A stretch of DNA of 56,603 bases, filler included, from Nitrospiraceae bacterium (GCA_002726235.1; 3 parts of 3 records of this genome joined end to end with filler, not necessarily neighbours in it); one strand, 5' to 3'. Counted from the first letter of the whole stretch, positions 3,001-9,000 are shown. Numbers: made by a program.

Positions 3001-6000
3001 TGACGCCCAATCAAATTTCCCTGTTCTCGTTTCTGTGTTCCATGATTGCCGCCGGACTGTTTGCTCTGGGCGGCTATCTCGCCTTGCTTCTGGGAGGCGT
3101 TCTTGCCCAATTCGCATCTGTCATCGATGGGTGCGACGGGGAAGTGGCTAGGCTCAAGTACCAAAGCAGCGACTTCGGCGGTTGGTTCGATGCGGTGCTG
3201 GACCGTTATGCCGATGCGTTTCTCCTCTTTGGCTTGACGTGGCATGTGCTCCTCACGGAGCCGAATGGTTGGATCCTCTTCATCGGTGTCATGGCCATTA
3301 TCGGATCCTTCATGCTGAGTTATACGGCGGATAAGTACGATAACCTCATGCGTGAACGATTCGAGTTGAGGGGTATGGCCATGATACGGATGGGACGTGA
3401 TGTGCGGGTATTGCTCATCTTCATTGGTGCAGTGATGAATCTCGTACTCCCTGTGCTGGTGGCGATCGTGGTGGTGATGAATATCGAGACAATACGCCGG
3501 ATGAAGGTCGCGTCGGATGCGTAGTGTTGAGTCTGCCAAACAGAGCATCAGGCGGATTGTCGGCGGCTCGCGCGTGCCCGAGGACCCACGCCATGCTGAC
3601 AACACCCTAGAGTGGCTGTTGCGCTTTGCACCGGATGCCGACGATGCTCTGCAATTGGCAGCGCTGGCCCACGACATCGACCGAGCCATCGAAGAAAGCA
3701 AGACCCCGCGTGCGGACTTTGAGGATTATGATGCCTTCAAGGCTGCCCATGCCCGTCATGGCGCGGAAATACTGCGCCCGATTCTCGTCGCATGTGGCGT
3801 GGAAGGCCATATCGTGAACGAGGCGTGCCGTTTGGTAAAGGTCCACGAGGTGGGAGGAGATCCCAGCTCCGATCTACTCAAGGATGCCGACAGTGTCTCC
3901 TATTTCGACGTCAATCTCCCGCTCTATTACGAGCGTGAGGGGTGGGATGAGGCCAAACGGAGATCACTCTGGGGATATCGGCGTCTGTCGCCACCGGCGA
4001 AAGAGATTGTCAAACACATTGTCTACCAGGAGCAAGCGCTGGTGCGTTTGATGCAGGAGGTCATTCATGAAGCTCGCGAATGTCTTCAACCGACTCTGCA
4101 ATGAAGCCGACCACCATTGCCTCTCCTAGTGTACCATGAGTGGGTGGACGAATATCGAACTGACCTTTCCCCCTTGATTAAGTTCAGCGAGCGCGACGAT
4201 GCTGTGAAAGACTATCACCGCCAAAACAGAGCTCTCCCTGAAGAGACCCGATACGACATCCTGATTCTAAACGCGTCATCTAGAATGGCGTTACCCGTCA
4301 CGCATCCGCGCTTCTTCCCTCAGGGCCTACTCTCGCCATAAGATCAAGAGCTATATAGCTAGCCTCCCTTTCAAATTATCTTCACCCCCTGCTTACGATC
4401 TCAATCCAAAAATGTGTGATGCGCTAAAATTGTCGAGTATTGTTGTGTTCGACTCAATGTTGATTTAGGTCGGAATCAACTTCGGCCCTATTTACAGGCT
4501 CTTCAAAGCATTGTTCAAGAAATGTGGGGTTGGCACGAAATCTGCTTTCCCCCATTGGAGGGAATCGTATACGAGGATAGCTCACATGCTGAATTTCTGG
4601 AAAACAGGGTAGATGCGAAGCCTTTTGAAAGGAAACGTCGATCGTCAAGCTCGAAAGGTGAAGGTTCGCCAGAATCCTGTCGACCGTTGGGCATATACCA
4701 CGTGTGGGTATTGCTCGACCGGATGCGGCATTGAAGTGGGAGTGAAAGATGCTCGTGCGGTGTCCGTGCGAGGAACCAATGCCCATCCGGTCAATCAAGG
4801 CAAACTATGCTTGAAAGGCATTTGGGAGTTCGAGGCGATTAACGCACCGAATCGCGGGACACATCCGTTGATGCGCGAGGAACCGACTCAGCCATATCGT
4901 CGGGTCTCCTGGGATGCGGCACTCACGCAAACGGCGACAGAATTTCGTCGCATTATGGACACGTACGGTCCGGACGCGCTTGCGGTCGTCAGCACCGGCC
5001 AGATCTATACCGAGGAATTCTACGCCCTCGGTAAACTTGTGCGGGGGGGACTTGGGACAAACAACTACGACGGAAACACCACCTTATGCATGGCCAGTGC
5101 GGTATCAGGCTACAAGCGATCCTTTGGATCCGATGGCCCCCCAGGATGCTACGACGATTTTGATGAGACGGAGTGCCTGCTCGCATTCGGATCGAATCTT
5201 GTGGAATGTCATCCGGTAATTTACTACCGGCTCAAGATGGCGCTCGAGCGCCGTCGATTTCCTGTTATCGTCATCGATCCACGCGTCACTGTGTTCGCAC
5301 AAAACGCGGATATTCACCTTGCCATCAATCCTGGGACGGACTTGGTATTGCTCAATGCCCTCGCTCACGTGATTTTGGAAGAACGCCTCGCTGATCAGAA
5401 ATACATTGAAACCCATACCAGCGATTTCGATGCATTTGTGGAAACGGNGACGAAATACTCCCCTGAATACGCGGAGCCGATCACTGGAATTCCAGCATCC
5501 ACAACTCGAACAGTTGCCAGGATCTATGGCAACGCAAATGCTGCGATGTCCATTTGGACAATGGGAATCAATCAGTCTGTGCATGGATCAGATGGCGTGG
5601 TCGCTATTAACAATCTCTCGTTGCTTACAGGAAACATCGGAAAACCAGGCGCAACGTCGCTCTCTATCACTGGCCAGTGTAATGCCATGGGCACCCGTGA
5701 ATTTTCGTCATGCTCAGGACTGCCGGGCTATCGCCTGCTCGAAAATCAGGAACACCGGGCGCAAATCGCGCAATATTGGGGTGTGGATGAATCATTCTTT
5801 CCCCTTAAACGAGGCAAAACGATGACCGATATCTTTCCCGCCATTGAGGCAGGAACCATCAAGGGTCTTTGGCTCATCGCGACCAATCCTGCGACATCAA
5901 TGCCGCAAACCCAGCGGATTGCAAAGAGTTTGAGAAACCTTGAGTTTCTTGTCGTCCAAGACGTGTTCGAAAATGTGGATTCAGCAGAGTTTGCCCACGT

Positions 6001-9000
6001 GTTTCTCCCCGCTGCGATGTGGGCTGAAAAAACGGGAACATTTACAAATTCTGAGCGCCGAGTGGGATTAGTCAGAAAAGCAGTCGAGCCTCCCGTCGAA
6101 GCGAGAAGCGATTTAGAGATTTTCTGTGCGATGGCAGAAAAACTTGGCGTTGGACACCTTCTCCCGTCAACAGCACCTGAAATGATGTTCGATGAGTTCA
6201 AAACGATCAGTAAAGGACGTCCATGTGACTATTCCGGACTGAGTTACGACGCATTGGAACGAGAAGGTGGTATCNAGTGGCCTGCTCCAACAGGGGAGGG
6301 AAGCCCACGGCTGTATACCGATGGACGCTTTCACACCGCCAATCGAAAAGCGCGCTTCATTGCGTTAGAGTTTCACGATACCAACGAACGCCCTGACGAT
6401 CAGTATCCCTTCTGGTTGAATACTGGTCGAGTCATTGAGCACTGGCACACGAGAACCAAGACGGGACAGATTGGGAACCTGAACAAATTCTCGCCTATCC
6501 CCTACGTGGAAATGAACTCGATTGATGCCAACCGATTGGGGATTAACTCGTTAGATTCGGTACGGGTGATCTCAAGACGTGGCCAAATAACCGTCATCGT
6601 ACAGGTGACAGAATGCGTCGCCCCAAGGATGGTGTTCATTCCATTCCATTTTGCGAAGGGTGCGAATTTCATGACCCTAGGTCTCTTGGATCCATACTCA
6701 CGGCAGCCGGCGTTTAAGCAGTCTGCAGTCAAGATTGAGAAGGTGGTGTCGAGTTGAGTGNTTCGAATATCAAATCNGACAGCTCATTGAGCTCAAGCCG
6801 TTATGATCTCNCTGTTGACATCGAGACGCCCTTGCCACAAAAGGCGGAATATGGAGAAGCTGGGGAAATTGCAAAAGCGCTATGTCAAAACAGCTGTGAT
6901 CCCACGGATGAATTCAAAGCAACCCAGCAGGTCGGATTTATCTTCCGAGCTGATAATTGTATCGGGTGTCACTCGTGCGAGGCGGCCTGTAGTGAAAAGA
7001 ATGGGTTGCCATCGCATATGGCTTGGAGAAAAGTCGGCTATGTGGAAGGCGGCACCTATCCTGACTACACTCGAGTCAACATCTCGATGGCCTGTAACCA
7101 TTGCGATGATCCCGTCTGTCTCAAGGGATGTCCAACCGGTGCCTATGTAAAGTATCAGGATACTGGTGCCGTTATCGTTGATAGTGACATCTGTTTCGGC
7201 TGTCAGTATTGCACGTGGGTGTGTCCGTATGAGGCGCCCGCATTTAACCCTGAAACAGGTTCGGTCACCAAGTGTAATATGTGTGTCGATCGCTTGGACG
7301 CTGGGCTTCAACCGATGTGTGTCGATGCCTGTCTCGGACACGCGCTGGAATTTGGAGCAATAGACAAGTATGAACGGGACAATCCTGCGGCGCTGACGCA
7401 CATTGCTGGGTTTCCAGATCCGTCTATCAGTAAACCGAACGTGCGGTTCGATCAGAGGCGATCACTTCCCACAACTATGAAGCGCGCCGACACTGAGCTC
7501 ATACAGTATCAGTCCCTCACTTCATCGAATGAAAACACCCGAATCAATGAGATCGGTCTCCCGTATCAGTCGAGCGGAAAAACACATTCAGCGAGTACGG
7601 GAGAGAATCACGGAAGCAAAACGAGCAAGCAGGTGCCCTGGTCTTCCTTGCACTCCCACGAAACCTCCCTTGTGGTGTTTACCCTGCTCGCTCAGTTCGT
7701 CGTTGGAGCGTTCCTCTCGCTCTGGAGTCTACCGCTGATAACATCGGGTGCCGGCTTGAAGACCAGCCTGGTCGGTCCAACACAGGCGATCCTTGTCGGC
7801 ATCACAACGTTATTGGCGGTGGGGCTTGGAATTTCAACCTCACACCTTGGAAAACCGTGGAGATGCTATCGGTCATTGAACAACCTGCGGTATTCCTGGG
7901 TGAGTCGCGAGATTCTCGCGATGGGATTATTCTTTGGTAGCTTGACCCTGTTCACAGCACTGACGTTTCTCGGAGTTTCAGGTTCGTGGGCGCAATGGGG
8001 ATTGGGATCTGCCGTAGCGATGTGTGGAATTGCCAGCATCTTTACCATGTCGAAGATCTATATGATCCCGGCAAGACCTTTCTGGAATCACCCACACACG
8101 TGGGTTTCCTTCTATTCATCGGCCTTCGTTCTGGGCCCGTACCTCGTTGCGGCTGTGCTCGGATTGCTGACCGCGATTCCAGTGATATTCCTTGCTGCGT
8201 TCACAGCGGTTGCGTTAACCACGCAGGTGATTCAGATGACTTCCCAGCGTGTCCATCTGCAAGATCTCGCGTCTGAACCGCAGATGAACAACAAGCGGAA
8301 TCGATCGTTTGGTCCATTGTCGACAAACACACAAGCCGCTCTCCATGTGCAAGGCGAAGCTCAGGCATCTTATGATCAACTTCTCGGAAAATTCGAACGG
8401 TTTCAGAAGATGAGAAGTGCACTCTCGCTCGTCACAATCAGCATGAGCGCAATCACCCTTGTGGCAGCGATTGCGACTAGCCTGTTCTGGAGCGGTCCAT
8501 CGGGAGTGATGAGCCTTGTGAATAGCGTGGTCCCGTGGGTGACTCTGTCCCTCTTTGTGACCGTGCTGGCCGGCGAACTCATCGGCCGTGCGTTGTTCTA
8601 CTCCGTTGTCACCCCCACCACCATGCCAGGATCTCTCTTCATCAAAAACCGTGGCTTCGAACAATTGGCCAGGGACACTGGCTTAGCTAACGATCCCATG
8701 GTTGGGGTTTCGCTGCACTGACTTGTAGCCAGAGACAGATGCCCTGGTGCTAGAAAGCTGGGACAGCTTCGTTCATTGCTTGTACAGTAAGCAAGTACCA
8801 TTTCTCATTCGTGGAGAGAGCCTTGTCCGCTCAGGCGCCTCGTCGAGTTGAAGTAAAGACGATTTCTCGTTTCTGCCGAAGACCGCGTAGGCGAGAAGCA
8901 CAAACAAGAACACAAAGGTGGCGGGAATCACCAGTTTGATAAAGGCACCTTCAGTGAAGNAGCCAGCGATGCCCACCACTGACGGAAGTACAATCGTAAT

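Follow-up and report, generated by a model that had tools for sequence, protein, structure and literature searches.

A Nap/Nas-clade catalytic subunit paired with a fused iron-sulfur/DmsC anchor in a marine Nitrospiraceae bacterium: a probable quinol-fed nitrate reductase of the cytoplasmic membrane face

Nap enzymes are fed by quinol, and in Paracoccus NasC obtains its electrons from NADH through NasB and NasG. Formate dehydrogenases carry a (Sec/Cys)-His active site. In the sections of PMC8076601 that deal with it, SoeABC of Allochromatium vinosum and Aquifex aeolicus is treated as a cytoplasm-facing sulfite:quinone oxidoreductase that gives electrons to quinone, its anchor being held inverted and its quinone site lying on the N side. 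The same sections list Ser62, His65, Ser82, Glu87 and, in TM8, Arg271 as the quinol-site residues of DmsC, and report that quinol oxidation is blocked in the E. coli DmsC mutants of His65 and Glu87. ForCE of Bacillus is described as a non-canonical, menaquinone-linked formate dehydrogenase (PMC8808070).

The DNA analysed here, referred to as the window, is a stretch of 56,603 nucleotides, filler included, from a Nitrospiraceae bacterium (GCA_002726235.1). The genome-wide survey's note had described in it a NarB-like gene followed by a gene for a fused iron-sulfur/DmsC anchor, and both reading frames were recovered with the lengths and domains given there:

4613..6757, + strand: putative catalytic subunit, Mo-bisPGD nitrate reductase of the Nap/Nas clade, 714 aa (Pfam domains)
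6754..8721, + strand: fused electron-transfer and anchor subunit, 655 aa (Pfam and NCBIfam matches, family profile)
6928..7374, + strand: four-cluster ferredoxin domain, residues 59-207 (invariant cysteines, TIGR02951 DmsB match)
7657..8604, + strand: DmsC-type quinol-binding membrane domain, residues 302-617, predicted N-in/C-in (PF04976)

It is rather probable that the two products form one assimilatory nitrate reductase, fed by quinol, on the cytoplasmic face of the inner membrane. The cytoplasm-facing, quinol-fed arrangement, already proposed in that note, is supported by the NapA residues, the DmsB and DmsC likeness, the quinol site, the charge bias and the co-occurrence of the genes; from these, together with the gene anatomy, cofactor-site conservation, adjacency and promoter boxes that were computed, we infer that the two proteins form a physical complex, how it is oriented, which way its electrons flow, that nitrate is its substrate and that it serves assimilation.

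The catalytic subunit begins with MRSLLKGNVDRQ, as read from the ORF in the window; residues 279 and 555 read as X owing to single N bases, which leave the frame intact. No longer ORF reaching further upstream exists. Pfam matches cover Molybdop_Fe4S4 (25-69), Molybdopterin (83-510) and Molydop_binding (600-703). The four-Cys motif of the FS0 [4Fe-4S] cluster lies within PF04879 at 25-69, with C31, C34, C38 and C66 invariant in 33 orthologs. The best solved relative is NapA of Desulfovibrio desulfuricans (E 1e-144), whose C140, M141, M308 and R354, counted in the alignment, are identical to C159, M160, M317 and R362; all four are invariant in the 33 orthologs. In NapA we take Cys140 to be the Mo ligand, accompanied by Met141 and by Met308 and Arg354 of the active site. 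The active site is Cys-Met, unlike the (Sec/Cys)-His of formate dehydrogenases.

As had been claimed, a twin-arginine motif is absent from both proteins, and a Tat motif is also missing in 55 of 55 full-length orthologs of the catalytic subunit. A C-terminal BFD 2Fe-2S domain is absent as well, Molydop_binding ending at residue 703 of 714. The catalytic subunit falls below all the NCBIfam nitrate-reductase cut-offs, including those of the NasC/NasA equivalogs (NF047855, 519 versus 1100; NF041323, 511.7 versus 1000) and of NapA (TIGR01706, 415.7 versus 930), and its top NCBIfam match is Fdh-alpha, with 614.3 bits versus a cut-off of 666. It belongs to a tight ortholog group, 53-89% identical, the next homologs in Nitrospirota being at most 41% identical. 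A search of the genome with the catalytic subunit as query brought up no second nitrate reductase.

The anchor gene starts with TTG and overlaps the TGA of the catalytic gene by 4 nt; X at residues 3, 8 and 20 stems from single N bases, and the frame is intact. The protein consists of an N-terminal extension (1-58), a DmsB-like part (59-250), a variable linker (251-299), a DmsC-like eight-helix part (300-616) and a conserved tail (617-655), with Pfam matches to Fer4_11 (111-202) and DmsC (302-617). The four Cys groups of the DmsB type are all present, their 16 cysteines (C69/72/75/79, C114/117/122/126, C147/150/153/157 and C174/177/189/193) being invariant in 62 relatives, and TIGR02951 DmsB scores 168.6 bits, under its cut-off of 214.1. 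PF04976 scores 90.9 bits versus a cut-off of 22.3, which places the membrane part in the DmsC family, and eight hydrophobic segments, the number reported earlier, begin at residue 305. The family profile covers residues 2-184 of the 205 of E. coli DmsB (E 3e-55) and 6-283 of the 287 of E. coli DmsC (E 1e-29). Judged by profile coverage, the fused anchor is a whole DmsB joined to a whole DmsC.

The quinol site of DmsC is retained. S361, H364, S381, E386 and R612 correspond to S62, H65, S82, E87 and R271 of E. coli DmsC; S361 is conserved in at least 90% of relatives and the other four are invariant. No conserved His pair of the haem type occurs inside the helices. The loops on the iron-sulfur side carry on average 19.7 K+R and those on the opposite side 0.63 (62 sequences), and all 62 relatives have the excess on the iron-sulfur side; E. 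coli DmsC has no comparable bias. Because of this positive-charge bias, the iron-sulfur side is predicted to lie in the cytoplasm.

The distribution of the two genes agrees with the counts in the survey's note: the fused anchor is present in three of the five genomes of its own genus and in 15 of 300 other sampled Nitrospirota, and it was found in none of 56 other genomes sampled from the same order. In its own genus the cluster of catalytic and anchor genes is either wholly present or wholly missing. The same 15 Nitrospirota hold both the anchor and a catalytic ortholog; these orthologs are 65% identical or more, and no other homolog exceeds 41%. The note had counted 3525 proteins of the fused build, and 3530 were obtained here at E<=1e-10 among 8000 scored; DmsC plus Fer4 domains are present in all of the 120 matches listed. 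One Atlas neighbour cluster of the anchor is mostly from Aquificota, which is no more than a lead on a possible nearness to SoeC.

The earlier suggestion that the pair is special to the Nitrospirales sister family does not hold, for among about 400 sampled Gammaproteobacteria the ortholog occurs in 56 genomes, the anchor in 55, both in 54 (of the 57 with either gene) and the two side by side in 51. The design, if quinol-fed as proposed, is thus widespread beyond that family. Across 80 related loci, a NarB-like gene lies upstream of the anchor on the same strand in 77, and the best NarB-like match ends at most 1100 nt from the anchor match in 75; 42 of 60 pairs either overlap or are separated by no more than 30 nt. 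The exceptions are few. Two loci had been left unexplained for want of an upstream NarB, and this stands as to the loci; their genus (G302 and G304) does have both, but on separate contigs. Catalytic and anchor genes are likewise unlinked in genomes G345 and G601. One of the 55 gammaproteobacterial anchors, in G541, lies among unrelated genes in a genome that lacks a NarB-like ortholog. In locus L101 the anchor gene stands behind a NirA-type reductase gene and a PII gene, so that the anchor may serve other partners. The literature yielded no description of this fused-anchor nitrate reductase, as had been stated before, and no experiment on any member of the fused-anchor family.

The surroundings of the pair, in which NirBD and a nitrate/nitrite porter had already been pointed out, are as follows:

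4531..4546, + strand: sigma-54-type (-24/-12) promoter-like box, TGGCAC-N5-TTGCW with 1 mismatch, 67 nt before the start of the catalytic gene
9362..12385, - strand: NirB-NirD fusion, NAD(P)H nitrite reductase, 1007 aa (NF011565 1136 bits, TIGR02374 1045 bits), with the NirD part (TIGR02378) at residues 866-970
12754..14223, + strand: outer-membrane porin, Alginate_exp family (PF13372 195.5 bits)
12758..12773, + strand: sigma-54-type promoter-like box before the porin, NarK and kinase genes, exact match to TGGCAC-N5-TTGCW
14141..15715, + strand: NarK-family nitrate/nitrite MFS transporter (TIGR00886 309.4 bits versus a cut-off of 311.7; MFS_1)
15755..17464, + strand: PP2C phosphatase fused to a Ser/Thr kinase (Pfam matches)
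21398..22889, + strand: modA and modB, molybdate ABC transporter, reaching the contig end (TIGR01256 203.2 versus 62.5; TIGR02141 214.4 versus 182.6)

Both + strand units of the cluster are preceded by boxes resembling TGGCAC-N5-TTGCW, which we take to be the sigma-54 (-24/-12) consensus, and rpoN was found in the genome. In the 80 related loci, 15 of the 22 exact matches to the consensus lie at most 300 nt before cluster genes. The true start of the porin is probably downstream of the second box, e.g. at the ATG at 12787. The PP2C-kinase gene is a recurrent neighbour of NarK, found by tblastn in 27 of the 80 loci.

Under the proposed mechanism, quinol, probably ubiquinol in this genus, would be oxidised at the DmsC-type site near the cytoplasmic surface, and the electrons would pass through the four [4Fe-4S] clusters of the DmsB-like domain and the [4Fe-4S] cluster of the catalytic subunit to Mo-bisPGD. 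Nitrate imported by NarK would be reduced there, and the nitrite would be converted to ammonium by NirBD with NAD(P)H. The enzyme alone should generate no proton gradient, because quinol would give up its protons on the same side of the membrane on which nitrate reduction takes protons up. Quinone couples lie far below the potential of the nitrate/nitrite couple, and for this reason the electrons are expected to run from quinol to nitrate; by established potentials, electrons passing from nitrite to quinone would have to climb about 0.3 V. The nitrate/nitrite couple is placed near +430 mV (PMC10100899). A point against the mechanism is that UbiA-family, MenA, MqnA/D and UbiB genes were not found in this 90.65%-complete assembly, ubiA being seen only in the four sister genomes. 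Nitrate used for growth is probably reduced in this marine bacterium, and in many others, with electrons drawn from the quinol pool and not from NADH or ferredoxin.

Assimilation appears more likely than respiration as the role of the enzyme, because of the NirBD, NarK and modAB neighbours and the sigma-54-type boxes. A dissimilatory or redox-balancing quinol:nitrate oxidoreductase, with nitrate as an electron sink, energy conserved at complex I and NirBD detoxifying the nitrite, is unlikely, though any reductase fed by quinol necessarily ends a branch of the respiratory chain, and the genome holds two NuoG-type genes. In several genomes the cluster also includes a classical Nas of the NADH type, so that the pair might have a second role: this NasA has a BFD 2Fe-2S domain in loci L071, L084 and L092, and adjoins its own FAD/NAD reductase in L071 and L084, only NasA having been scanned in L092. 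The sigma-54/NtrC-type boxes before cluster genes, here and in relatives, and the PII gene linked in L101 speak against a dissimilatory role, as do Parahaliea mediterranea DSM 21924 and Alteromonadaceae BrNp21-10, in which this enzyme is the sole Nap/Nas/Fdh-like one at E<=1e-40. The two roles are compatible with each other, and some bacteria use NirBD dissimilatively, according to part of PMC4914600.

Less probable still is a soluble enzyme of the NarB/NasC type, fed by ferredoxin or by NADH via NirB-NirD, with the anchor serving, e.g., a NirA-type nitrite reductase. NirB and the Rieske-type NirD fused to it, beside the gene pair, could supply electrons from NADH in the manner of NasB/NasG and NasC of Paracoccus, and the NirA-linked anchor of L101 and the orphan anchor of G541 fit such a division. 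Comparable nasA genes are also taken as soluble in the relevant parts of two genome papers (PMC4725956, PMC4914600). Against this stand the near-perfect two-way co-occurrence and the tight, often overlapping adjacency of the genes. Moreover, tblastn finds NirB in just 49 of the 80 loci, versus 77 for NarB-like genes, and Mo-bisPGD catalytic subunits usually pair directly with DmsB-type four-cluster subunits, as seen in solved pairs. A formate:quinone or nitrite:quinone oxidoreductase feeding the quinone pool, which the Fdh-alpha match and the examples of SoeABC and ForCE might suggest, is very improbable in view of the Cys-Met active site with the NapA Met and Arg, the gene context, which throughout concerns nitrate and nitrite, and the uphill course of nitrite oxidation by quinone.

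If the pair is a quinol-fed nitrate reductase, it is not strictly the third design of electron supply that the survey's note had made of it, as Nap is also quinol-fed. A further precedent is SoeABC. As far as the relevant sections of PMC8076601 describe it, here too a Mo-bisPGD subunit that lacks a Tat signal and faces the cytoplasm goes together with a four-cluster iron-sulfur subunit and an eight-helix DmsC-like anchor free of haem. The residues listed there for SoeC (His65, Glu87, Ser82 and Ser85) are positions conserved in the fused anchor. Both would face the cytoplasm on an inverted DmsC-like anchor, for the present pair by sequence rules only. Unlike SoeABC, the pair has its iron-sulfur and anchor parts in one polypeptide and a catalytic subunit of the Nap/Nas clade that should reduce its substrate, electrons running from quinol to the enzyme. 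The best relatives of this subunit are NapA and FdhF-type enzymes, and it is probably not a sulfite-oxidising subunit of the SoeA type.

E. coli DmsB and DmsC are covered end to end, with the 16 cysteines and the quinol-site residues kept. However, DmsAB is Tat-exported and faces the periplasm, while the present pair has no Tat signal and the opposite charge bias; its subunits are fused, its 39-residue conserved C-terminal tail is missing in DmsC, and its catalytic partner is not DmsA-like.

The catalytic subunit has the fold and size of NarB. With soluble NarB (ferredoxin) and NasA/NasC (NADH via NasC/NasB-NasG) it would share the cytoplasmic location and gene ties to nirBD, narK and nitrogen control. 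It differs from NasA/NasC, including the Klebsiella type, in having neither the C-terminal BFD-like 2Fe-2S domain nor a FAD/NAD reductase partner, and from all soluble forms in that a membrane iron-sulfur/quinol subunit would be obligatory.

As in NarGHI and NapAB-NapC/NapGH, quinol electrons would reach a Mo-bisPGD nitrate reductase through iron-sulfur clusters, and NarGH faces the cytoplasm too. At NarI, however, which is a di-haem b protein, quinol is oxidised on the outer face and a gradient is built, whereas the present anchor is haem-free with a predicted quinol site at the inner face; NarH matches the fused anchor weakly (74.9 bits versus a cut-off of 524), which sets the pair apart from NarGHI. 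Nap, for its part, is periplasmic, and the present pair is predicted to be cytoplasmic.

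The two genes that the genome-wide survey's note had placed at 4613..8721, a NarB-type gene and a gene for a fused iron-sulfur/DmsC protein (the anchor), are confirmed by their open frames and Pfam domains. The TTG start of the anchor gene shares four bases with the upstream TGA, and single N bases account for five X residues across both proteins, with the frames intact. The pair lies on contig C14, which forms the first 22.9 kb of the window; the assembly is 1.87 Mb in size and 90.65% complete. Near-identical DNA is present in marine, seawater and hydrothermal metagenomes from 14 studies, and the anchor gene is matched without any difference by two independent DNA runs.

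Genes of contig C14 in and around the pair
1028-3524, upstream of the pair: inositol-phosphate genes, namely inositol-3-phosphate synthase and an adjoining bifunctional inositol-1-phosphate cytidylyltransferase/DIPP-synthase-like gene (the latter NF041135, 282 bits, below cut-off)
4613-6757, + strand: catalytic-subunit gene, open frame of 714 codons
6754-8721, + strand: anchor gene, open frame of 655 codons, TTG start
Downstream of the anchor gene, opposite strand: NirB-NirD fusion
12754-14223, after the NirB-NirD fusion: Alginate_exp-family outer-membrane porin, heading the NarK unit
After the porin: NarK-family transporter
15755-17464, directly after NarK: PP2C phosphatase-Ser/Thr kinase fusion
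Farther downstream: Mrr-like nuclease
19152-21218, just before modAB: broken TonB-dependent receptor (Plug and barrel), one in-frame stop at 20319-20321
After the receptor: modAB

The genes at 1028-3524 belong to the synthesis of di-myo-inositol phosphate, a compatible solute mainly known from thermophiles. The left flank (1028-4104) has no DNA match in the 98% complete genome of a sister of the same genus, G001. The true start of the porin is probably downstream of the annotated long-ORF start. The split TonB receptor may be either a pseudogene or the result of a base error; selenocysteine at its in-frame stop is ruled out, because the stop is not TGA. No Rfam match was found in window 1-22800, and scans for sigma-70 promoters and terminators gave hits at chance level only.

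Among solved structures, the best match to the catalytic subunit, in which the three Pfam domains typical of Mo-bisPGD enzymes are found, is the D. desulfuricans periplasmic nitrate reductase (E 1e-144). Cys140, Met141, Met308 and Arg354 of NapA are aligned to the identical C159, M160, M317 and R362, which, together with the four cysteines of the N-terminal [4Fe-4S] cluster (FS0), are invariant in 33 orthologs. In the NCBIfam ranking, Fdh-alpha comes first (614 bits, below cut-off) and NasC second (519 bits vs 1100), and the subunit therefore falls into no curated equivalog. Formate dehydrogenases possess Sec/Cys-His where the catalytic subunit carries Cys-Met, a pair that would speak for nitrate as the substrate. 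A Tat motif was found neither in the catalytic subunit nor in any of 55 full-length orthologs, and the domain scan detected no C-terminal 2Fe-2S domain in the subunit.

In the anchor, a four-cluster Fer4_11 domain (111-202) is joined to a DmsC domain (302-617). With a profile of 62 relatives, residues 2-184 of the 205 in E. coli DmsB and 6-283 of the 287 in DmsC are aligned, and this coverage indicates that the anchor is a true DmsB-DmsC fusion. Compared with DmsB and DmsC, it is extended by 58 residues at the N-terminus and carries a variable linker, a long loop connecting helices 6 and 7, and a C-terminal tail of 39 residues. The tail (residues 617-655, window 8602-8721), which follows helix 8 and is missing in E. 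coli DmsC, ranks second in conservation among the regions of the family, with a mean majority share of 0.74. Also in the family, 16 invariant cysteines form four groups. The quinol site of DmsC consists of Ser62, His65, Ser82 and Glu87; changes of His65 or Glu87 stop quinol oxidation, and helix 8 bears a conserved Arg271 (PMC8076601). The counterparts of these five residues in the anchor are S361, H364, S381, E386 and R612, all of which are invariant or near-invariant. The helices contain no conserved histidine pair, which makes haem binding by the anchor unlikely. When shorter relatives of the DmsC part were searched for, the 26 matches were for the most part fragments.

Eight hydrophobic segments are predicted in the anchor. 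Among the 62 relatives, the mean number of Lys and Arg residues is 19.7 in the loops on the iron-sulfur side vs 0.63 in the opposite loops, and the bias toward the iron-sulfur side is seen in every one of the 62 sequences. In contrast, E. coli DmsC lacks this bias; its partner subunits are on the periplasmic side. Neither protein of the pair bears an export signal. From this and the charge bias, a cytoplasmic position is expected for the catalytic subunit as well as for the iron-sulfur domain and quinol site of the anchor.

The partnership of the two proteins may be assessed from 80 loci of named genomes fetched by the anchor, mostly from marine Gammaproteobacteria, with some from Nitrospirota and from Beta- and Alphaproteobacteria. 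A NarB-like gene (53-89% identical) lies upstream on the same strand in 77 loci, and in 75 of these the end of the best NarB-like match is no more than 1100 nt away from the anchor match. The genes overlap or are separated by at most 30 nt in 42 of 60 pairs (longest-ORF starts). Two of the three loci without a NarB-like gene are contig ends. In the third, from a Nitrospirota MAG (L101:3-3891), the anchor is preceded by a NirA-type sulfite/nitrite reductase and a PII gene, not by a nitrate reductase, and the anchor may thus serve more than one partner.

Two families of small ORFs occur directly 3' of the anchor gene: a soluble one (about 125-150 aa; 13 loci, including L038:9978-10352 and L081:9781-10149), whose members share a W-W motif close to the end, and a membrane protein with two helices and some 120 aa (six loci, including L048:9799-10167). 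Both are lineage-specific, without Pfam match, and absent from the window.

Among 300 evenly sampled Nitrospirota genomes, 15 carry an ortholog of the catalytic subunit (identity at least 65%; 41% or less for the next best homologs), and the fused anchor is in exactly the same 15, the count that the survey's note had reported for the anchor. In 12 of these carriers the two genes are neighbours. They lie on separate contigs in G302 and G304, which belong to one genus, and in the fragmented G152. The two loci of one genus that the note had left without an upstream NarB gene thus remain unlinked, while both genes are present in each genome. Within the genus of the present genome, the cluster is present as a unit in the genome itself and in sisters G002 and G003, truncated by a contig end in G004, and not found in G001.

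In the class of Parahaliea mediterranea, the Gammaproteobacteria, about 400 genomes were sampled. The anchor was found in 55 of 400 (one genome being unscored for it) and the ortholog in 56 of 401, a tally that takes in an unpublished genome (G622) carrying neither gene. Both genes occur in 54 genomes and are adjacent in 51. In the two genomes with the ortholog only, the contig stops 314 and 426 nt past the gene. One genome (G541) has an orphan anchor of 630 aa (L124:1381-3273) among PAP2, glycosyltransferase and HD-GYP-type regulator genes, and no NarB-like ortholog was found in it at E ≤ 1e-150. The few such unlinked or orphan anchors are a weak point in reading the pair as one enzyme. The distances of the anchor and NarB-like proteins are correlated (Mantel r 0.86, reached by none of 999 permutations), which reflects that neighbouring genes were inherited together and is no evidence of binding.

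The gene context points to nitrate assimilation. Among the 80 loci, NirB is found in 49, NarK in 32 and the PP2C/kinase fusion in 27, and modAB is present in the window. The catalytic gene is preceded, at a distance of 67 nt, by a sigma-54-type box; an exact one (12758-12773) stands before the porin/NarK unit, and rpoN is present in the genome. In the 80 loci, 15 of 22 exact sigma-54 matches are located at most 300 nt before NirB, NarB-like or NarK frames. These boxes would fit NtrC-type nitrogen control. The PP2C/kinase fusion, detected by tblastn in its 27 related nitrate clusters, may control the transporter or the reductase through phosphorylation.

Apart from the catalytic gene, the Mo-enzyme-like genes of the genome comprise two NuoG types and one that is AioA-like; the queries used detected no Nar, Nap or Nxr. 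The catalytic gene is the sole nitrate reductase candidate in this assembly of a small-genome marine Nitrospirales. The AioA-like molybdoenzyme (TIGR02693, 428.8 bits vs cut-off 359) is encoded outside the window, on contig C13 (L118:2479-10411), in a row with a di-haem cytochrome c peroxidase and a Rieske protein before it and a 335-aa protein, a second di-haem peroxidase and a cytochrome c after it. In its gene order the row is as reminiscent of idrABP1P2, the cluster for iodate reductase, as of arsenite oxidase, and it could bear on the energy metabolism of this Nxr-less marine Nitrospirales.

RNA-library contigs from one hydrothermal sample cover the anchor gene in parts (six pieces in run X19 and two in X20, at least 99% alike), and one piece extends 98 nt upstream of position 6812, spanning the gene junction. 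Because DNA may be present in the library, these pieces are a hint of expression only.

With the nitrate couple near +430 mV (PMC10100899), electron flow is downhill only in the direction from quinol to nitrate. The quinone is probably ubiquinone. Each of the four sisters (G001-G004) has one UbiA-family gene, and that of G001 (L121:1423-2289) scores above the proteobacterial ubiA equivalog cut-off (297.7 vs 275.45), which would place ubiquinone in a Nitrospirales genus. No UbiA-family, MenA, MqnA/D or UbiB gene was found in the present assembly; ubiA is presumably in its missing tenth. If quinol is oxidised at the inner face, the enzyme should by itself be electroneutral.

NirBD may also feed the reductase, which is another weak point of the reading. 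In some Gammaproteobacteria, a classical NasA with a BFD domain lies in the same cluster, beside its own FAD/NAD reductase in L071 and L084, which sets the anchor-linked enzyme apart as a system with an electron supply of its own. The quinol-site residues, charge bias, co-occurrence and adjacency lend support to the note's view of the pair as a membrane-bound, cytoplasm-facing nitrate reductase drawing on quinol.

Bacterial assimilatory nitrate reductases have two textbook supplies: NAD(P)H via a flavoprotein, or ferredoxin/flavodoxin. If the pair works as read, membrane quinol would be a third, in about one-seventh of the sampled gammaproteobacterial species (55/400) and in scattered Nitrospirota (15/300); cultured carriers include Parahaliea mediterranea DSM 21924 and Thalassotalea species. 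In P. mediterranea DSM 21924 and in Alteromonadaceae BrNp21-10, no further Nap/Nas-like enzyme was detected. If the reading holds, the energy cost of nitrate assimilation would change in models of marine heterotrophs and chemolithotrophs, nasA/narB genes in metagenomes would be read differently, and the anchor genes, now named DMSO reductase subunit or even aspartate carbamoyltransferase, would be reannotated. It seems to us rather doubtful that nitrate assimilation on quinol is, in the ocean and among lithotrophs, a major route that has been overlooked. On such a route, electrons would come from after complex I or from quinone-reducing lithotrophic donors, sparing the NAD(P)H or reduced ferredoxin of the textbook Nas, and oxidisers of iron, sulfur and methane would also be spared the reverse electron flow for making NAD(P)H/ferredoxin. 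Nitrate would be nitrogen source and terminal electron sink simultaneously. In a bolder form of this proposal, the DmsC-type domain, which has the conserved TM8 arginine, would carry the quinol protons across the membrane, making the enzyme itself electrogenic.

Full-text searches of the literature, which took in neither subscription journals nor most supplements, turned up no account of an assimilatory nitrate reductase that is membrane-anchored or quinol-fed. In the sections available, a 2021 catalogue of NrfD/DmsC-containing complexes includes neither a nitrate reductase nor a fused form (PMC8076601), and a 2023 survey of the MopB superfamily gives a cytoplasmic location for Nas enzymes and makes no mention of DmsC or NrfD (PMC10100899). 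The supplement on Ferrovum JA12 lists nasA, nirBD, narK and nirC, and not the anchor. Alteromonas macleodii is described as having nasA without a nasC partner, and its knockout fails to grow on nitrate (PMC12021255, PMC4899447). It was rejected as genetic evidence: its nasA is 2892 nt long and followed by cobA (supplement of the 2025 curation paper), hence of the long classical type and uninformative on the anchor-linked family.

Judged from its sequence, the enzyme is widespread and best described as a catalytic subunit of Nas type that sits on a fused DmsBC module, oriented as in SoeABC. Among the NrfD/DmsC-type complexes covered in the relevant sections of the 2021 catalogue, SoeABC alone is assigned a cytoplasm-facing orientation (PMC8076601), and the orientation predicted here for the fused anchor is the same.
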